A stretch of DNA of 6,659 nt, from IMG/VR virus record IMGVR_UViG_3300018467_000013. One strand, given 5' to 3'. This stretch comes from a virus. Lineage: Duplodnaviria; Heunggongvirae; Uroviricota; Caudoviricetes. Shown piece by piece: positions 1-6,659 of the stretch. The translations under genes were made by a program, and so were the position numbers. Within the stretch, counting starts at the first letter, position 1. Each line of letters starts with the position of its first letter. Under the pieces are notes generated by a model. It was not told where the DNA came from. It searched no databases and was given only the letters and a program-made list of their open reading frames with translations.

Positions 1-804
1 ATGCTGCTGACCCGTGCTGATATGGAAGACCGTGAACGCTTCCTGAACGCCCGCGACACCCTGCGTGCGTTGCTCGATAACAATATCGTTCCGGTAATCA
101 ATGAGAACGATGCTGTCGCTACGGCAGAGATTAAGGTCGGCGATAACGATAACCTTTCTGCGCTGGCGGCGATTCTGGCGGGTGCCGATAAACTGTTGCT
201 GCTGACCGATCAAAAAGGTTTGTATACCGCTGATCCGCGCAGCAATCCGCAGGCAGAACTGATTAAAGATGTTTACGGCATTGATGACGCACTGCGCGCG
301 ATTGCCGGTGACAGCGTTTCAGGCCTCGGAACTGGCGGCATGAGTACCAAATTGCAGGCCGCTGACGTGGCTTGCCGTGCGGGTATCGACACCATTATTG
401 CCGCGGGCAGCAAGCCGGGCGTTATTGGTGATGTGATGGAAGGCATTTCCGTCGGTACGCTGTTCCATGCCCAGGCGACTCCGCTTGAAAACCGTAAACG
501 CTGGATTTTCGGTGCGCCGCCGGCGGGTGAAATCACGGTAGATGAAGGGGCAACTGCCGCCATTCTTGAACGCGGCAGCTCCCTGTTGCCGAAAGGCATT
601 AAAAGCGTGACTGGCAATTTCTCGCGTGGTGAAGTCATCCGCATTTGCAACCTCGAAGGTCGCGATATCGCCCACGGCGTCAGTCGTTACAACAGCGATG
701 CATTACGCCGTATTGCCGGGCACCACTCGCAAGAAATTGATGCAATACTGGGATATGAATACGGCCCGGTTGCCGTTCACCGTGATGACATGATTACCCG
801 TTAA
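1..804 (+). CDS. proB: Glutamate 5-kinase (ProB), C-terminal ~267 aa; 5' end lies outside the window (the Met at position 1 is internal)
   Basis: Translation reads as the amino-acid-kinase C-terminal half plus a PUA-like tail of enterobacterial ProB. TAA stop at 802-804 is followed 11 bp later by the proA start with a GGAG ribosome-binding site, the conserved proBA arrangement. Codon usage is host-like. Confidence 0.9.
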
Positions 805-815
805 GGAGCAGGCTG

Positions 816-2069
816 ATGCTGGAACAAATGGGCATTGCCGCGAAGCAAGCCTCGTATAAATTAGCGCAACTCTCCAGCCGCGAAAAAAATCGCGTGCTGG
901 AAAAAATCGCCGATGAACTGGAAGCACAAAGCGAAATCATCCTCAACGCTAACGCCCAGGATGTTGCTGACGCGCGTGCCAATGGCCTTGGCGAAGCGAT
1001 GCTTGACCGTCTGGCACTGACGCCCGCACGGCTGAAAGGCATTGCCGATGATGTGCGCCAGGTGTGTAACCTCGCCGATCCGGTGGGGCAGGTAATCGAT
1101 GGCAGCGTACTGGACAGCGGCCTGCGTCTTGAGCGTCGTCGCGTACCGCTGGGGGTTATTGGCGTGATTTATGAAGCGCGCCCGAACGTGACGGTTGATG
1201 TCGCTTCGCTGTGCCTGAAAACCGGTAATGCGGTGATCCTGCGCGGTGGCAAAGAAACGTGTCGCACTAACGCTGCAACGGTGGCGGTGATTCAGGACGC
1301 CCTGAAATCCTGCGGCTTACCGGCGGGTGCCGTGCAGGCGATTGATAATCCTGACCGTGCGCTGGTCAGTGAAATGCTGCGTATGGATAAATACATCGAC
1401 ATGCTGATCCCGCGTGGTGGCGCTGGTTTGCATAAACTGTGCCGTGAACAGTCGACAATCCCGGTGATCACAGGTGGTATAGGCGTATGCCATATTTACG
1501 TTGATGAAAGTGTAGAGATCGCTGAAGCATTAAAAGTGATCGTCAACGCGAAAACTCAGCGTCCGAGCACATGTAATACGGTTGAAACGTTGCTGGTGAA
1601 TAAAAACATCGCCGATAGCTTCCTGCCCGCATTAAGCAAACAAATGGCGGAAAGCGGCGTGACATTACACGCAGATGCAGCTGCACTGGCGCAGTTGCAG
1701 GCAGGCCCTGCGAAGGTGGTTGCTGTTAAAGCCGAAGAGTATGACGATGAGTTTCTGTCATTAGATTTGAACGTCAAAATCGTCAGCGATCTTGACGATG
1801 CCATCGCCCATATTCGTGAACACGGCACACAACACTCCGATGCGATCCTGACCCGCGATATGCGCAACGCCCAGCGTTTTGTTAACGAAGTGGATTCGTC
1901 CGCTGTTTACGTTAACGCCTCTACGCGTTTTACCGACGGCGGCCAGTTTGGTCTGGGTGCGGAAGTGGCGGTAAGCACACAAAAACTCCACGCGCGTGGC
2001 CCAATGGGGCTGGAAGCACTGACCACTTACAAGTGGATCGGCATTGGTGATTACACCATTCGTGCGTAA
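816..2069 (+). CDS. proA: Gamma-glutamyl phosphate reductase (glutamate-5-semialdehyde dehydrogenase)
   Basis: 417-aa ORF immediately downstream of proB. The translation ([37 protein letters not shown]...) is recognised as enterobacterial ProA, an aldehyde-dehydrogenase-family protein. GGAG ribosome-binding site sits 7-8 bp upstream and G+C is high, as in the host. Confidence 0.93.
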
Positions 2070-2114
2070 ATAAAACCGGGTGATGCAAAAGTAGCCATTT
2101 GATTCACAAGGCCA

Positions 2115-2143
2115 TTGACGCATCGCCCGGTTAGTTTTAACCT
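2115..2143 (+). promoter_or_regulatory. Putative sigma70 promoter for thrW (TTGACG -35, 17-bp spacer, TAACCT -10)
   Basis: TTGACG at 2115-2120 and TAACCT at 2138-2143 by eye, about 40 bp upstream of the mature tRNA 5' end and followed by GC-rich sequence. Motif match only; the -10 is weak. Confidence 0.3.
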
Positions 2144-2183
2144 TGTCCACCGTGATTCACGTTCGTGAACATGTCCTTTCAGG

Positions 2184-2259
2184 GCCGATATAGCTCAGTT
2201 GGTAGAGCAGCGCATTCGTAATGCGAAGGTCGTAGGTTCGACTCCTATTATCGGCACCA
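2184..2259 (+). tRNA. thrW: tRNA-Thr, anticodon CGU
   Basis: 76-nt sequence GCCGATATAGCTCAGTTGGTAGAGCAGCGCATTCGTAATGCGAAGGTCGTAGGTTCGACTCCTATTATCGGCACCA folds as a cloverleaf: 7-bp acceptor stem (GCCGATA/TATCGGC), D-arm AGCTC/GAGC, anticodon loop TTCGTAA with CGT, T-arm GTAGG/CCTAT with TTCGACT loop, encoded CCA end. Position directly downstream of proA matches the thrW locus. Confidence 0.92.
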
Positions 2260-2262
2260 TTC

Positions 2263-2425
2263 TAACGTCTCCCCAAGTCTACTCAAGTATTTAAAAACCT
2301 CTTATAATCCGCATGTTAGCGCCCCTTTTAGTCTTTTGACGTCTACTTAAGTACCCCAAAATCTACAGTCAATTGGGGGTACTTTTGGGGGTATTTGCTG
2401 TTCGGTTTAGTGGAGGTACCCCCAA
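2263..2425. repeat. attL-proximal repeat cluster, candidate integrase arm-type and excisionase binding sites
   Basis: Direct repeats GTCTACT(C/T)AAGTA at 2277-2289 and 2341-2353. G5TA/TAC5 motifs in inverted pairs: GTACCCCAAAA 2351-2361 with TTTTGGGGGTA 2384-2394, and TTGGGGGTAC 2373-2382 with GGTACCCCCAA 2416-2425. The last copy overlaps the integrase ribosome-binding site and GTG start. Confidence 0.5.
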
Positions 2426-3640
2426 GTGAAACTCAATGCCCGTCAAATAGACACTGCCAAGCCAAAAGAGAAGGCTTACAAGCTGGCTGATGGTGGTGGT
2501 CTGTATCTCCTGGTAAAACCTAGTGGAGGAAAATACTGGCGCTTTAAATATCGTGTAGCTGGTAAAGAGAAGCTGTTAGCACTAGGTGTGTATCCTGAAG
2601 TTACCTTGGCTGATGCTCGTGCAAAACGTGAAGAAGCTAAAAGGGGTATCGCTGGGGGTATCGATCCGATGGAAGCGAAACGAGAGGAAAAGATTGCCCG
2701 GGAAACGCAGTTAAACAATACCTTCAAAGATATTGCCCTTGAGTGGCACAGCAGCAAATTAAAAAAATGGTCTGCTGGTTATGCTTCAGATATCCTCGAA
2801 GCCTTCAACAAAGATGTGTTCCCTTACATTGGCAAAAAACCAATTGCCGAAATCAAACCACTTGAACTTCTGAATGTGCTGCGACGCATCGAGGGGCGCG
2901 GTGCTACAGAAAAAGCCAAAAAAGTGAGGCAGCGGTGCGGGGAAGTTTTCCGCTATGCAATAGTCACTGGTCGCGCAGAGTATAACCCTGCCCCAGATCT
3001 TACTAGCGCGATGCAAGGCCATGAATCTAATCATTATCCTTTCCTCACAGCCAAAGAATTGCCTGATTTTTTCAAGGCATTGTCCAGTTACTCAGGAAGT
3101 GCATTGGTTGTTATGGCGGCTCGTCTACTGATTATCACTGGTTTGCGAACTGGCGAACTGCGCGGTGCATTATGGGATGAAATCGATCTCAACAAGGCTA
3201 TCTGGGAGATACCTGCTTCACGGATGAAAATGCGTCGCCCTCATGTGGTGCCTTTGTCTAAGCAGGCTCTTTCTCTTATTGGGCAGATTAAAGAATTAAC
3301 TGGTAATTATCCGCTTATGTTTCCCGGCCGTAATGATCCAAGGAAAACAATGAGCGAGGCTAGCATAAACCAAGTATTTAAACGCATCGGCTATAACGGA
3401 AAGGTTACTGGTCATGGATTCCGGCACACCATGAGCACGATTTTACATGAGCAGGGCTATAACACCGCGTGGATAGAAACGCAGCTTGCACACGTTGATA
3501 AGAACTCAATTCGTGGCACGTACAATCATGCGCAATATCTGGACGGGCGGCGCGAGATGCTCCAGTGGTACGCCGACTATATGGATTCGCTCGAACATGG
3601 CGGTAACGTGGTGCATGGCAAGTTCGGAAAATGTGGATGA
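2426..3640 (+). CDS. Site-specific tyrosine recombinase, P4-family phage integrase
   Basis: 404-aa ORF with GTG start and a GGAGGT ribosome-binding site 8 bp upstream. The N-terminus (KLADGGGLYLLVKPSGGKYWRFKYRVAGKEKLLALGVYPEV) resembles the arm-binding domain of P4-type integrases. The C-terminal catalytic domain carries conserved R (RTGELRGALWDEIDL), the H-x-x-R box (HGFRHT) and the tyrosine nucleophile region (RGTYNHAQY). The gene is adjacent to the tRNA. Confidence 0.92.
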   Translation: MKLNARQIDTAKPKEKAYKLADGGGLYLLVKPSGGKYWRFKYRVAGKEKLLALGVYPEVTLADARAKREEAKRGIAGGIDPMEAKREEKIARETQLNNTFKDIALEWHSSKLKKWSAGYASDILEAFNKDVFPYIGKKPIAEIKPLELLNVLRRIEGRGATEKAKKVRQRCGEVFRYAIVTGRAEYNPAPDLTSAMQGHESNHYPFLTAKELPDFFKALSSYSGSALVVMAARLLIITGLRTGELRGALWDEIDLNKAIWEIPASRMKMRRPHVVPLSKQALSLIGQIKELTGNYPLMFPGRNDPRKTMSEASINQVFKRIGYNGKVTGHGFRHTMSTILHEQGYNTAWIETQLAHVDKNSIRGTYNHAQYLDGRREMLQWYADYMDSLEHGGNVVHGKFGKCG

Positions 3641-3762
3641 CTGGTTGCGTATACAGTAGTAGACTTTGAGCGACGAAAGAAAAGGCTGTGTCTAGGGTCG
3701 CTCCCGAAAATCCGTACACCTCGACGGACTGGTACAGCCACTACAGTAGAGGACGCTGAGGT

Positions 3763-4566
3763 GTGCGTATGATTGATATTCATGCCGAATTAAACGAATA
3801 CAAAAAAGATTTTATTTCTTTACGTGAATTTCTTGAGGTCGTGCTTAAGGTCGCTGGTGATGATTATGATGTTTCAGATGTCATAACTTGGATACTCAGG
3901 AGAATAAGCGGAGAACATATCCGCCTGTACACAGTAAATGAATTTAAGCTGTTGGAATCTTTTTGTAACCCGTATCGGGATGAATTTGATTATGATGTTC
4001 TTTATAGAAATCTGAATGCGGTTCGGAAACGTGGTTGTTTACCTGGTGAGAGGGATGAAAATGGTTTTCTGGTGTCCGGTTATTGGGAAGATCCCGAATT
4101 TGAGAACATTGGATTTATAAGGGGTGAAATTTTCGCAATTTTTCCCGATGTCCTTGACGCGTTAACGAAGCTGGAAGGCGCTAACTCTTCTGAAAATGAC
4201 GAGGCACAAGGACGCGATATTGAAAAGAAAGAGTTGCGTACAGAGGATGATTTATTATCCCAAATCGCAATGCTGGAAAAAGAAAACGCAGAGTTAAGGG
4301 CAAGGATAGAGCAGTTAGAGCAAGAGCGCCCGATACACTTATATAAATACTGGGATAAAGACCCATTAGCTAAGGCTATTGAGATTAGAAACAGAGAGTG
4401 GGCCAATTACGATCCAGAAAATGATTTTGCCACCAGGGGAAATCAAGAAGCGATAACCAGGGAGCTTAAGCAGTGGGGGGCAAGTAATGCACTTGCAACG
4501 CTCATAGAGAGGACTGCCTGCCCTATTAACCGAGACAACAGCCAAAAGAACGCAAAGCCGGATTAA
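3763..4566 (+). CDS. Hypothetical acidic coiled-coil protein (267 aa), orphan island cargo of unknown function
   Basis: Clean 804-bp ORF with GAGGT ribosome-binding site 7 bp before the ATG. It is strongly AT-rich relative to its flanks. The protein has a large excess of D/E over K/R, a central heptad-like segment (LLSQIAMLEKENAELRARIEQLEQER), and no Walker A, HTH or other motif I can recognise. It sits in the first cargo slot downstream of the integrase. Confidence 0.7.
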   Translation: MRMIDIHAELNEYKKDFISLREFLEVVLKVAGDDYDVSDVITWILRRISGEHIRLYTVNEFKLLESFCNPYRDEFDYDVLYRNLNAVRKRGCLPGERDENGFLVSGYWEDPEFENIGFIRGEIFAIFPDVLDALTKLEGANSSENDEAQGRDIEKKELRTEDDLLSQIAMLEKENAELRARIEQLEQERPIHLYKYWDKDPLAKAIEIRNREWANYDPENDFATRGNQEAITRELKQWGASNALATLIERTACPINRDNSQKNAKPD

Positions 4567-4581
4567 CGCACCATACCGCAT

Positions 4582-4723
4582 ACCCTGAGGGTGATTTACT
4601 GTTACCCTGAGGGTATTTTTTATCTTCCCCGTCAATTTTACCATCACCCTTAGGGTAGATTTCCTCCCGATTACCATCACCCTTAGGGTTAATTTCCTTC
4701 CGGTAACCATTAGGCCTGAGGGT
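4582..4723. repeat. Phased array of five near-palindromic 11-mers ACCCT(G/T)AGGGT, including 2.5 tandem copies of a ~33-bp unit; candidate operator or iteron array
   Basis: Copies at 4582-4592 and 4604-4614 (ACCCTGAGGGT), 4646-4656 and 4679-4689 (ACCCTTAGGGT, each within TTACCATCACCCTTAGGGT), and a degenerate copy at 4713-4723 (GGCCTGAGGGT). Start-to-start spacings are 22, 42, 33 and 34 bp, roughly whole helical turns. The array lies in the 226-bp gap between the orphan gene and alpA. Confidence 0.65.
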
Positions 4724-4792
4724 ATGAAAATATTCGTTATTTCTGTGCCATGATTACCTCGTCAAATTGAGTAGACGTTATGAGGTAAATAT

Positions 4793-4990
4793 ATGTCAAA
4801 TACGCTTATTCGTTTAACAGAAGTTCAGCGTAGAACTGGATATAGCAAGGCATGGATTTATCGCCTTATGGGGCAAGGTAAATTTCCTGTATCAGTTAAA
4901 ATTGGCTCGCGAGCTATTGCTTTCGTTGAGAGTGAAATTGACGAGTGGATTAATCAGCGTATTGCGGAATCACGCGGAACAGCTACCTGA
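4793..4990 (+). CDS. alpA: AlpA-family phage/island transcriptional regulator (Vis/Xis-like, MerR-type HTH)
   Basis: 65-aa ORF with GAGGT ribosome-binding site 9 bp upstream. The sequence LIRLTEVQRRTGYSKAWIYRLMGQGKFPVSVKIGSRAIAFVESEIDEWINQR matches the AlpA/Vis family signature (HTH followed by the ESEIDEW motif). Such genes typically sit near P4-type integrases. Confidence 0.85.
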   Translation: MSNTLIRLTEVQRRTGYSKAWIYRLMGQGKFPVSVKIGSRAIAFVESEIDEWINQRIAESRGTAT

Positions 4991-5067
4991 TTAAATGGCT
5001 ACGGGGCTATTGCCCCCAGCTATCCACCAGCAAATAAAAGTAACTTAATTCGATAGCAGGAGTTTTT

Positions 5068-5868
5068 ATGAAATTTCCAAAAACGCCCGTACAGGGGCGG
5101 GGCTTCGTTCGGCCTGAAAACCAGAATCTGCAAAATTTCGGCGAAATTATCCCGATTATTTCCGGCGTTATTGGCGGGAGTGAAACCACTATTGTTAGCG
5201 CCAGAGCGTTACATAAGGCGTTAGGTGTAGGGCGCGTTTTCCGTTCGTGGATCAAGGGGCGCATTGAAGAATACGGGTTCACGGAAGGCGTGGATTATGA
5301 GGTTGTTGAATATTTGAGCCGACCCGATCCGGTGAGCGCAAAATCTCGCCAGCAAACCGCTCTTGAGTACATCATCACAGTGAACATGGCGAAAGAACTG
5401 GCGATGGTCGAACGTACCGAACAGGGCCGCGCCGTTCGCCAGTACTTTATCAAATGCGAGGAGGAGCTACACAAGGTTGCGCCTGTTCGTTCCGCAGCGT
5501 TACGCCGGGAACTGAAAGCCCGTATCACAGTTGCCAGCTACTTTAAGCCAATGTGTGCCGCGCTGGAGGCGTACCGGGCTGAACTGGGTAAAAACACGTT
5601 CCAGCACCACTACACCACGGAAGCCAATATGCTGGCGCGTATCGTGCTGGGTGGCATGACTGCAAAACAGTGGGCGCAGGCGAACGGCATCACAGGCGAA
5701 CCACGCGACCACATGAGCACGTTGCAGCTTGAGCACCTTTCTTACCTTGAGCAGAGCAATATCACGCTGATTGAGTTAGGCCAGGGCTACCACCAGCGGA
5801 AAGCTGAATTAATTCGTCTTTCGCAGCGTTGGTTAGCCCGTCGCATGGAGGAAAACAGCCATGTGTAA
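5068..5868 (+). CDS. Phage antirepressor-like protein with AntA/AntB-type N-terminal domain
   Basis: 266-aa ORF with AGGAG ribosome-binding site 7 bp upstream. The N-terminal segment SARALHKALGVGRVFRSWIKGRIEEYGFTEGVDYEV resembles the AntA/AntB antirepressor domain consensus. G+C is closer to host-like, and the gene is co-directional with alpA. Family assignment is from memory of the domain signature, not from a search. Confidence 0.65.
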   Translation: MKFPKTPVQGRGFVRPENQNLQNFGEIIPIISGVIGGSETTIVSARALHKALGVGRVFRSWIKGRIEEYGFTEGVDYEVVEYLSRPDPVSAKSRQQTALEYIITVNMAKELAMVERTEQGRAVRQYFIKCEEELHKVAPVRSAALRRELKARITVASYFKPMCAALEAYRAELGKNTFQHHYTTEANMLARIVLGGMTAKQWAQANGITGEPRDHMSTLQLEHLSYLEQSNITLIELGQGYHQRKAELIRLSQRWLARRMEENSHV

Positions 5869-6628
5869 CGCTCTGACCGTTACAAAAAGAGAAAGCGCCC
5901 CGTTGCCGGAGCGCCTTTGTGAACGAATAGCCTACTGCGCCATATTGCTTACTGTCTACGAGGCAGATTATAGCGTTGTGGTCGCACAGAGTGAAGGCAC
6001 TGATCACCGTTACTACAGCACGCCAGAAATGCAGAATATTTCGCTGCAAAATGCCGTTGGCCACGCTGTCCGGAAAGCAAAAAATTTTGCTGGTGGCGTG
6101 ACTGATGCGATTTTGTCAGGTCACCAGGTGCTGATCAATCTGATGTCTGATTTCGTTCTGGATAAAACAAAGGCGACTGCAGAGGGCCACCAGTGGGAAA
6201 GCTACACACTTGAACACATTGCCAACAATGCCAGATTTGCGGCTGGTGGGCAATGTGATCAGTGTGCTGGCTTGCTGGTGGGCTATTCATGCTCTTTAAC
6301 ATTGCCATGCCGCGATGTTTTCCAGGTATGTGATCCCATTTTTGTGCGCCTGTACTCTTTAAGGAATTGCTCAAGGGCAAAAGCACATGGCGCGAATCTT
6401 TCTGATTCATGCTCTATCTTTCTGCGCCGTCTTTTCCGTGCCGGTGATAATGTTTTGGTCAATTCTTTATCGGTCATTGTGTTGTCCTGCATAGCAATGC
6501 GCCGTAATACCTTACACCACGGCGCTGATGGTGATTACTCTGGTTCTTTGGTCTTGCGACGCTGGAGTTCTTCGCGTGCAACGGTGACAAGCTGCCCGAT
6601 TTCTTCCGCTGCTTTGATGCCGATTTGA
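5861..6628 (+). CDS. Uncertain ORF; the 5' portion (to about 6300) may be a real coupled gene, the 3' portion is probably non-coding read-through
   Basis: The ATG at 5861 overlaps the upstream stop in ATGTGTAA, a translational-coupling arrangement. The ORF has no stop until a TGA formed at the adapter junction (6626-6628). Its last ~100 codons are rich in rare codons (AGG, ATA, TCA) and give a Cys/Ser/Arg/Leu-rich translation, whereas the opposite strand reads as a plausible protein C-terminus. Confidence 0.3.
   Translation: MCNALTVTKRESAPLPERLCERIAYCAILLTVYEADYSVVVAQSEGTDHRYYSTPEMQNISLQNAVGHAVRKAKNFAGGVTDAILSGHQVLINLMSDFVLDKTKATAEGHQWESYTLEHIANNARFAAGGQCDQCAGLLVGYSCSLTLPCRDVFQVCDPIFVRLYSLRNCSRAKAHGANLSDSCSIFLRRLFRAGDNVLVNSLSVIVLSCIAMRRNTLHHGADGDYSGSLVLRRWSSSRATVTSCPISSAALMPI
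6535..6627 (-). CDS. C-terminal fragment (30 codons plus stop) of a convergent gene whose body lies beyond the contig end
   Basis: Reverse-complement translation from 6627 gives QIGIKAAEEIGQLVTVAREELQRRKTKEPE followed by TAA (6537-6535), using common host codons and with a protein-like amphipathic composition. The frame is open to the adapter junction. Confidence 0.35.
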   Translation of the reverse strand, partial: QIGIKAAEEIGQLVTVAREELQRRKTKEPE

Positions 6629-6659
6629 GATCGGAAGAGCACACGTCTGAACTCCAGTC
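6628..6659. other. Illumina TruSeq adapter sequence (technical artefact, not genomic)
   Basis: AGATCGGAAGAGCACACGTCTGAACTCCAGTC matches the standard TruSeq read-through adapter prefix exactly. Confidence 0.95.

Follow-up and report, generated by a model that had tools for sequence, protein, structure and literature searches.

Does the 3' end of thrW in this 6,659-nucleotide stretch of DNA (the window) mark the point at which a mobile island joined a host chromosome, and if so, what kind of island is it and which bases of the tRNA gene did it use? The interval 2184-2430 is very probably the attL junction of an integrated PICI-type phage-satellite island with a P4-family integrase. The first-pass annotation had read proBA, then a tRNA gene, then an integrase gene, and this order is borne out by the features collected in Table 1. 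ARAGORN finds one tRNA in the window, a tRNA-Thr with anticodon CGT, and the Rfam tRNA model (RF00005) matches 2184-2256 with 71.8 bits. All 76 nt are the same as those of K-12 thrW when compared by eye, and the gene is 100% identical to that of the closest carriers of the island, TUM9757, UTAK-5 and 55989. The last bases of the gene, whose encoded CCA ends at 2259, are supplied by the island or common to it. The view that host-like composition ends at the tRNA holds only weakly: GC content falls from 0.543 in proBA to 0.428 in 2260-2425, with 0.472 in int and 0.428 in 3641-5067, but returns to 0.516 from 5068 on.

Table 1. Features of the thrW junction and the adjoining island DNA, in window positions.
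Feature	Position	Strand	Basis or remarks
proB, 3' part	1-804		AA_kinase and PUA domains
proA	816-2069		Upstream of thrW
thrW, tRNA-Thr(CGU), host target gene, intact, encoded CCA	2184-2259	+	ARAGORN, Rfam, identity to carriers
attL core, CTCCTATTATCGGCACCATT	2242-2261	+	Repeated at the distal island end in related genomes
Putative strand-exchange (overlap) segment, GCACCAT	2254-2260	+	tRNA G71 to A76 plus one base downstream
P' arm, island DNA between core and int	2262-2425	+	Includes int 5' region
Possible weaker arm-like copy, + strand AGTACCCCAAAA	2350-2361	-	Four G/C in the run; status uncertain
Putative arm-type integrase site P'1, TTGGGGGTACTT	2373-2384	+	+114 from CCA end; +113 in P4
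Putative arm-type integrase site P'2, TTGGGGGTATTT	2385-2396	+	+126; +125 in P4
Putative arm-type site P'3, inverted, + strand AGGTACCCCCAA	2414-2425	-	+155; +152 in P4
int, P4-family tyrosine integrase, 404 aa, GTG start	2426-3640	+	Pfam domains, similarity to P4 Int
int-alpA RNA motif, Rfam RF02996	3685-3752	+	45.5 bits (gathering score 35.8); the match spans the full model
alpA/vis-family gene	4793-4990	+	Pfam Phage_AlpA 4.6e-19; PHROG 'excisionase and transcriptional regulator'

How sharp is the boundary, and what does the locus look like where the island is absent? Window positions 1950-2650 were compared with 5,426 complete E. coli genomes, 5,412 of which gave a match. Among the sampled genomes lacking a related integrase, the best matches stop at query positions 310-316, corresponding to 2259-2265 of the window, with a single exception in which the match ends at 2276; the sharp boundary seen at the tRNA end is thereby upheld. 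A 600-nt synthetic empty site (attB), made from the window up to the CCA and the distal host flank, is found in one piece (600/600 nt) in ATCC 8739 and many other genomes, so the suggested comparison with island-free strains yields a precise attB in which both host flanks are joined to the nucleotide; 948 genomes cover at least 80% of this query. The island of the window is carried by 59 of the complete E. coli genomes, a related integrase is present at thrW in 737, and in K-12 the site is occupied by an unrelated element. Most carriers have the island directly at thrW; that of CAVP879 follows a lambdoid prophage. Elements related to it are found at thrW in many Enterobacterales genera. Described as an insertion hotspot, thrW is named in the literature among the most frequently targeted tDNAs of E. 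coli (PMC7545054).

Since the shift in composition is modest and GC content is again at host level after 5068, the region might be taken for an ancient, fixed, lineage-specific one in which adjacency to a tRNA gene and a short repeat are coincidental. The breakpoint and empty-site searches have already refuted this reading, and we give it next to no probability: presence and absence of the island are polymorphic at the locus, which has many other occupants besides, the empty site matches to the nucleotide, and related elements are present at the same tRNA gene in many genera. The first-pass annotation had likewise preferred a mobile island to a fixed region, and a scenario with no attR and the same gene content throughout is excluded by this polymorphism together with the distal repeat of the carriers.

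That distal repeat had been predicted to be a direct copy of the tRNA 3' end lying outside the window. The thrW 3' end is indeed present in a single copy within the window, and because positions 6628-6659 are (Illumina) sequencing adapter, the window's own attR cannot lie within it. In the four closest carriers, attR is located 15,671 nt (TUM9757), 14,576 nt (CAVP879), 20,158 nt (UTAK-5) and 15,344 nt (55989) downstream of the CCA end, in each case at the predicted yagP'/paoD host flank; in the window's own genome the far end would be expected to read TTCCTATTATCGCACCATT, then AAAATCAAAGAGTTACCCC of that flank. The prediction of a repeat at the far end therefore stands in these carriers, 14.6-20.2 kb downstream, and the expected position of attL, at about 2240-2260, agrees with the segment that is common to attR. 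The repeat is not perfect: the distal copy, TTCCTATTATCG-CACCATT, has 19 nt and one G fewer than the attL core. An indel-tolerant fuzzy search finds exactly two core copies per carrier locus, one at each island end. Exact and mismatch-only searches of the TUM9757 and CAVP879 loci with the thrW 3' end returned the tRNA copy only, owing to the 1-nt deletion in attR, and a repeat finder did not report the pair; in these two loci the repeat was recognised on reading the sequence and with the indel-tolerant search. An integrase fragment before attR in TUM9757 (L001, 37128-37504) was considered as a second, older element with its own attL and rejected: there is no core copy between the fragment and the island, and the adjacent P arm matches that of UTAK-5. 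We treat the fragment as cargo or a remnant inside the island.

The integrase beside the tRNA gene belongs, as had been proposed, to the P4 family. It has the Arm-DNA-bind_3 (3.6e-29), Phage_int_M (1.3e-34) and Phage_integrase (4.8e-26) domains of Pfam, aligns with P4 Int along its whole length at 43% identity (E 2e-117), and its catalytic residues R241, H330-x-x-R333, H356 and Y366, numbered by counting from the alignment, align with those of P4. Compared with the CAVP879 copy, int has 38 nucleotide differences and 0 amino acid changes, and compared with the 55989 copy, 47 nucleotide differences and 1 amino acid change; the gene is under strong purifying selection. The int-alpA RNA motif sits between int and the next ORF, and the alpA/vis-family product is a candidate for the factor that excises and activates the island.

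The P' arm between core and int is missing in empty-site genomes and is 98.8-100% identical in the four carriers. It begins with CACCATTCTAACGTCTCCCCAAG, resembling CACCATTCTTACTTCCAAG of P4, and contains a tandem pair of 12-mers with a period of 12 nt and one inverted copy (P'3), also picked up as an inverted repeat (I6). P'3 abuts the int start codon, and both here and in P4 it ends just before the M-K-L-N of Int. There are 4 occurrences of the motif TGGGGGTA in the window, where 0.14 would be expected. The tandem pair of the P' arm recurs beside attR, where the P arm of UTAK-5, TUM9757, CAVP879 and 55989 has it at -98/-86, compared with -96/-84 in P4. The five arm-type repeats are arranged as in the P4 attP, with positions agreeing within 1-3 nt. 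The weaker arm-like copy at 2350-2361 has 8-mers in common with the P arm in reverse orientation and has no annotated counterpart in P4. In a second thrW subfamily, whose Int is about 65% identical, GGGGGTA is changed to TGTGTATAG in both arms with positions kept. This covariation between motif and Int subfamily supports the 12-mers as putative integrase arm sites, to which Int would bind. In 2050-2500, a simple scan for promoters and terminators found no signal above shuffle controls.

Where within the core are the strands exchanged? In 12 loci where a single contig holds both island ends, GG stands in the tRNA copy and one G in the distal copy, which places the exchange to the right of the G position. 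In the TGTGTATAG subfamily, CACCAT is followed by C in attL and by T in attR and attB, and this difference sets a right-hand limit. Together, the missing G and the divergence of the flanks would confine strand exchange to about GCACCAT, with the exact cleavage positions presumably inside this segment. A single G is present in 36 of 39 diverse element-side P arms from IMG/VR, and also in many Enterobacterales genera; the other 3 of the 39 element-side cores have GG and are exceptions to this placement. A second kind of exception is seen in three species, in which a full-length thrW has a single G and a bulged acceptor stem: Citrobacter murliniae (CP163158), Lelliottia wanjuensis and a Buttiauxella MAG. 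We rejected the idea that the single-G attR is the fossil of a displaced host fragment: empty sites with the same host flank have GG, and the single G is found in dozens of unrelated P arms and tandem junctions from several genera. Element-side loss of one G of the tRNA pair G70-G71 may tentatively be regarded as functional, an asymmetry of the attachment site that has been conserved and not a sign of decay, although we hold this to be the less probable view.

Exchange at the very end of the gene differs from that of CP4-6, the classical thrW occupant of K-12. CP4-6 has the same tRNA gene and host flanks (proA ... yagP/paoD) but another integrase, IntF (466 aa), and elements of its type exchange in the anticodon-loop region, with 46-48-nt perfect repeats (for the concept of sublocation, see bioRxiv 10.1101/2020.11.02.365908). 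In the K-12 element the repeats are 48 nt long and keep GG, and intF lies at the far end. The phages P22 and SfV use thrW as well. Could the boundary in the window have been made by an integrase of this anticodon-loop class (CP4-6 IntF, P22/SfV-type), with the P4-like integrase a bystander? Such elements do use thrW, K-12 CP4-6 being an example, and in CAVP879 a lambdoid prophage is followed by a 46-nt thrW fragment. Nevertheless, we judge this very unlikely, because in the island carriers the distal repeat and the tRNA have just 19 nt in common, arm sites matching those beside the window int flank this repeat, IntF has only weak local similarity to the window Int, and the junction suits a P4 layout, in which int adjoins the tRNA.

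The P4-family integrase being the preferred author of the boundary, how closely does the island resemble known elements? Phage P4, which integrates at leuX rather than thrW, has the same integrase family, a P arm with two tandem 12-mers, a core that equals a tRNA 3' end, two tandem and one inverted 12-mer before the int start, near-identical site distances, a similar core-proximal P' sequence (CACCATTCT.AC.TC) and an AlpA/Vis-family gene. It differs in its arm motif, GGGGGCA instead of GGGGGTA; and unlike P4, the window island has no perfect 20-nt copy of the tRNA end as its core, the element side being without one G, and its relatives have a PICI-like gene content with no psu, sid or delta annotated. 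Among the Gram-negative PICIs (EcCICFT073/EcCIO42 family), the element of E. coli 55989 is listed as a 15.3-kb PICI at 296286-311648 (Fillol-Salom et al. 2018, PMC6092414 supplement). The repeats found here in 55989, at 296285-296304 and 311630-311648, coincide with the published coordinates. This element is a homologue of the window island and shares its thrW junction: there is 1 amino acid difference in Int, the P' arm is 98.8% identical, and identity over the rest of the window beyond int is 93.8%. It has the unidirectional int-alpA...pri/rep...perC organisation; in the window, int and alpA are both on the + strand, and the replication modules are known from relatives, in which primase, DUF927 or RepA helicase modules lie past the point corresponding to the window's end. 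Relatives differ in their replication and cargo modules. A DUF2213 gene is carried by TUM9757, and anti-phage systems are encoded at the variable island end beside attR, PARIS in 55989 and GapS1 in UTAK-5. Set beside the window island by description, the P4-like cryptic prophage CP4-57 of K-12 (integrated at ssrA, IntA/AlpA) likewise has a P4-family integrase beside the 3' end of a t(m)RNA gene and then alpA, with another target gene and other cargo. Excision of CP4-57 is reportedly driven by AlpA.

Is the island still mobile? The predicted attP is P arm...TTCCTATTATCG-CACCATTCTAACG, and the predicted restored attB is thrW...CACCATTAAAATC. IMG/VR contigs contain attP-like junctions in which a P arm and single-G core are followed by a P' arm. 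Terminal overlap is absent from these contigs, and we rejected their interpretation as excised circles and read them as tandem junctions. One (L003) belongs to the chromosome of another species and has the array order proA-thrW-element-element; only L053, a circular or tandem relative of 12,837 bp, has a terminal repeat, of 77 nt. All of the attP-like junctions could stem from tandem arrays, as that of L003 certainly does. Searches of phage and plasmid collections found no copy of the island. It is conceivable, though improbable, that the attL is genuine and the island a locked-in relic unable to excise, for instance because its attR core is one G short: attR and attL differ by a 1-nt deletion beside the presumed exchange segment, for exactly this island neither an excised circle nor an attP was observed, no copy is present in the phage and plasmid collections searched, and decayed remnants of such elements adjoin thrW in other species. 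Yet a single G is the normal element-side state in IMG/VR, where it also occurs in tandem junctions that must stem from integration; the strong purifying selection on int, the intact arm sites, alpA and int-alpA RNA, and the presence of the island in different strains and contexts with different cargo also speak for an active element. An island that can still excise is the preferred reading, and the copy in the window would presumably be competent to do so.

The attachment site of the circular island would be built like that of P4, with a short core that imitates the thrW 3' end, two tandem 12-mer arm sites about 85-98 bp to its left, and two tandem and one inverted 12-mer 114-166 bp to its right, just before int. 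Int, acting on arm and core sites, would exchange strands between the island core and chromosomal thrW within the last six tRNA bases plus one. Integration of this kind would leave an intact tRNA gene at attL, host-derived as far as the point of exchange, and int beside the tRNA, reading away from it; attR would be marked by the 19-nt imperfect copy of the tRNA end 15-20 kb off, beside the yagP'/paoD flank. Excision would be the reverse reaction, probably aided by the AlpA/Vis-family protein.

In its outline this finding is already known and ordinary: the island type at thrW was catalogued as a PICI in 2018, thrW is a recognised hotspot, integration of P4 type into the 3' ends of tRNA genes is textbook knowledge, and current understanding is unchanged. 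The boundary marks the start of a mobile satellite island and is useful for annotating draft E. coli genomes. Modest additions are a nucleotide-level set of attB, attL, attR and attP-like sequences for the thrW P4-like family, a narrowing of the exchange segment to about 7 bp, and comparative evidence, from a motif that covaries with the integrase subfamily, for the 12-mers as arm sites. Were the asymmetry of the G pair functional, exchange would be fixed to the 7-bp GCACCAT where the tRNA gene ends, and the left core sites of attP and attB would be non-equivalent, with a possible bias in directionality as a result. Rare reciprocal products, arising when exchange or repair occasionally takes place beyond the G, would then account for element sides with GG and for full-length thrW genes with one G only, and such events could damage thrW.

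Where does the island begin? The boundary at the tRNA end is real, and the argument for it rests on comparative evidence, not on composition. When window positions 1950-2650 were searched against 5,426 complete E. coli genomes, 5,412 matched, and in sampled genomes that lack a related integrase, similarity broke off at query positions 310-316, corresponding to 2259-2265 (in one genome at 2276); position 2259 is the last base of the encoded CCA. The match runs on into the gene of a related integrase in 737 E. coli genomes, and 59 contain 80% or more of the whole window. The compositional shift described in the first-pass annotation is present but modest: GC is 0.543 in proBA, 0.428 in 2260-2425 and 0.472 in the integrase gene (int), and is back to 0.516 after 5068. 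The window tRNA is identical to thrW of K-12 and of the closest carriers of the island.

A repeat of the tRNA end had been predicted downstream of the window as attR, and such a repeat was found in the four closest E. coli carriers. In the TUM9757 locus, which shares 98.8% identity with window 1-6626, the tRNA end turned up only once in exact and mismatch-only searches; TTCCTATTATCG-CACCATT was found by reading the sequence, directly before the yagP' fragment and paoD. This 19-mer also bounds the island in CAVP879, UTAK-5 (100% identity across window 1-3640) and 55989. The distance from the CCA end to the attR counterpart is 15,671 nt in TUM9757, 14,576 nt in CAVP879, 20,158 nt in UTAK-5 and 15,344 nt in 55989. 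A synthetic empty site, window 1960-2259 joined to the host flank after the distal repeat, gave an unbroken match along all 600 nt in ATCC 8739 and in many further genomes; coverage of this query reaches 80% or more in 948 genomes. The comparison with island-free strains that the first-pass annotation had suggested thus reconstructs attB as ...CTCCTATTATCGGCACCATT/AAAATCAAAGAG, the slash marking the junction. Occupied sites differ from empty ones by exactly the island plus one repeat copy. Both the original observation and its interpretation hold. Inside the TUM9757 island, directly before the P arm, there is a fragment from the C-terminal part of a second P4-like integrase (L001 37128-37504, minus strand), approximately 40% identical to the window Int, and no core copy lies between this fragment and the rest of the island.

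Which base pairs are exchanged? The junctions read ...CGGCACCATT/AAAATC (attB), ...CGGCACCATT/CTAACG (attL, in the window), P arm...CG-CACCATT/AAAATC (attR) and P arm...CG-CACCATT/CTAACG (attP-like). In 12 loci whose two ends share a contig, GG stands in the tRNA copy and one G in the distal copy, and a single G on the element side places the exchange to the right of that G. In a second thrW-targeting subfamily (Int approximately 64-66% identical), attL is CACCAT/CTCAAC, whereas attR and attB are CACCAT/TAAAAT, a difference that sets the right limit of the common segment. The exchange segment would then be the 7-bp GCACCAT at window 2254-2260, a length that fits the overlap regions of tyrosine recombinases, typically 6-8 bp. 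Such a segment also fits the "asymmetric 3' end" sublocation class, described for part of the integrase subfamilies, as a preprint (bioRxiv 10.1101/2020.11.02.365908) summarises. The element-side core has one G in 36 of 39 IMG/VR loci (L003-L005, L051-L086), with GG in three exceptions, and the single-G form recurs, next to very diverse P arms, in about 30 Enterobacterales species representatives (among L009-L050); about 12 further hits in unrelated taxa are at the chance level for an 18-mer. Three species representatives are exceptions to the proposed exchange, with a full-length thrW that carries the element-type single G. The acceptor stem of these genes is one base short, and downstream of each gene comes a decayed P' arm that lacks an intact int. 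These genes look like secondary deletion products, and indicate that integration or later deletion can leave a damaged tRNA gene. The conserved one-G asymmetry, one of only two mildly new points, narrows the exchange segment.

Region 2262-2425 is a P' arm of P4 type. In the GenBank annotation of P4, the 20-nt core equals the leuX 3' end, with two tandem 12-mers at one side and, at the int side, two tandem 12-mers and one inverted 12-mer abutting the int start. Counted from the CCA end, the P-arm tandem 12-mers are at -96 and -84 in P4 and at -98 and -86 in the window and relatives, the P'-arm pair at +113 and +125 versus +114 and +126, the inverted 12-mer at (-)+152 versus (-)+155, and the int start at +164 versus +167. 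The window and P4 Int proteins are 43% identical over their full length, with catalytic residues aligned. The window contains four copies of TGGGGGTA, where 0.14 would be expected. In the second subfamily the motif is (A/G)TGTGTATAG, in both arms and at nearly unchanged positions, and this covariation of motif and integrase, the other mildly new point, is good comparative evidence that the 12-mers are arm-type Int sites. The fourth exact TGGGGGTA (in GCTGGGGGTATC) lies inside int, 225 nt in; the P4 annotation likewise places an arm repeat within int, at 282 nt, but the codon positions differ, making homology of the two doubtful.

Features of the window, and full-length thrW genes with a single G in other genomes
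Feature	Location	Strand	Remarks
proB 3' part	1-804
proA	816-2069
tRNA-Thr(CGU) gene (thrW)	2184-2259	+	sole tRNA gene in window
Putative arm site TTGGGGGTACTT	2373-2384
Putative arm site TTGGGGGTATTT	2385-2396
Putative arm site AGGTACCCCCAA	2414-2425		inverted; adjoins int GTG at 2426
int, 404 aa	2426-3640	+	Arm-DNA-bind_3, Phage_int_M, Phage_integrase domains
TGGGGGTA copy inside int	2651-2662	+
int-alpA RNA motif (Rfam RF02996)	3685-3752	+	between int and next ORF; full-length, 45.5 bits (gathering score 35.8)
ORF	3763-4566	+	no family matches
TACCCTnAGGGTA palindromes	4581-4703		four to five copies, some in 33-nt tandem units
AlpA-family gene	4793-4990	+
AntA-family gene	5068-5868	+
ORF	5861-6628		stop codon created at adapter junction
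Illumina TruSeq adapter (AGATCGGAAGAGCACACGTCTGAACTCCAGTC)	6628-6659		final 32 nt
Single-G thrW, Citrobacter murliniae CP163158	L010 3757-3833
Single-G thrW, Lelliottia wanjuensis	L044 759-835
Single-G thrW, Buttiauxella MAG	L045 2407-2483

The palindromes occupy the gap upstream of alpA and look like candidate operator sites for a regulator. The adapter matches unrelated phage records at their ends, and similarity to E. coli goes no further than 6626; the given sequence therefore stops inside the island, and the ORF whose stop codon is formed by the adapter join is cut off or not real.

Mobility is supported by strong, though indirect, evidence. Presence/absence polymorphism at thrW among E. 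coli genomes, occurrence of the island in different contexts, and related elements at thrW across many Enterobacterales genera all count for it. No excised form of the exact island was seen. A further point for mobility is the IMG/VR contig L053 (IMGVR_UViG_2751185930_000001; 12,914 nt), with a 77-nt terminal direct repeat starting exactly at TCCTATTATCGG. It stands for a relative of 12,837 bp, assembled as a circle or in tandem and 83% nucleotide-identical to the window in the int region; its attP-like junction carries GG. Divergence of int, which also counts for mobility, is almost purely synonymous, unusually so: the CAVP879 copy (L002 20213-21427) has 38 nucleotide differences and no amino-acid change, and the 55989 copy (L087 2426-3640) has 47 and one.

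The relatives are organised like Gram-negative PICIs: int, alpA, antA, an Icd-like gene, a module of primase, DUF927 or RepA-helicase type, genes for ProQ/FinO and PerC, and lastly variable cargo beside attR. That cargo comprises PARIS AriA (5e-43) and AriB (3.6e-22) in 55989 (L087 15314-17270) and a gene annotated GapS1 in UTAK-5 (L007 38029-39627), and gave no defence-library matches in TUM9757 (L001 34668-37087) or CAVP879 (L002 32743-34350). The attR-adjacent site of these otherwise related islands looks like a swap-in hotspot. A "PICI" is listed for E. coli 55989 at 296286-311648, 15.3 kb (Fillol-Salom et al. 2018, supplement, PMC6092414), and the 55989 repeats at 296285-296304 and 311630-311648 coincide with those coordinates, so the kind of island and its boundaries were already catalogued, and the finding is an ordinary feature of a known kind.

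The thrW gene is among the most frequently targeted E. coli tDNAs (PMC7545054). CP4-6 of K-12 occupies the same site, but its integrase is another one (IntF, located at the far end of the element), and its repeats, perfect over 48 nt, begin in the anticodon stem. In CAVP879, a lambdoid prophage (L002 1-20048) lies between thrW and the island, leaving a 46-nt thrW fragment. The CP4-6 repeats and the CAVP879 fragment indicate that at least two integrase classes use different sublocations of one tRNA gene and are able to stack in tandem. A temperate phage and a PICI-type island alike use thrW in CAVP879, at different sublocations, an arrangement that qualifies the statement in PMC6092414 that prophages never use the attachment sites of PICIs.
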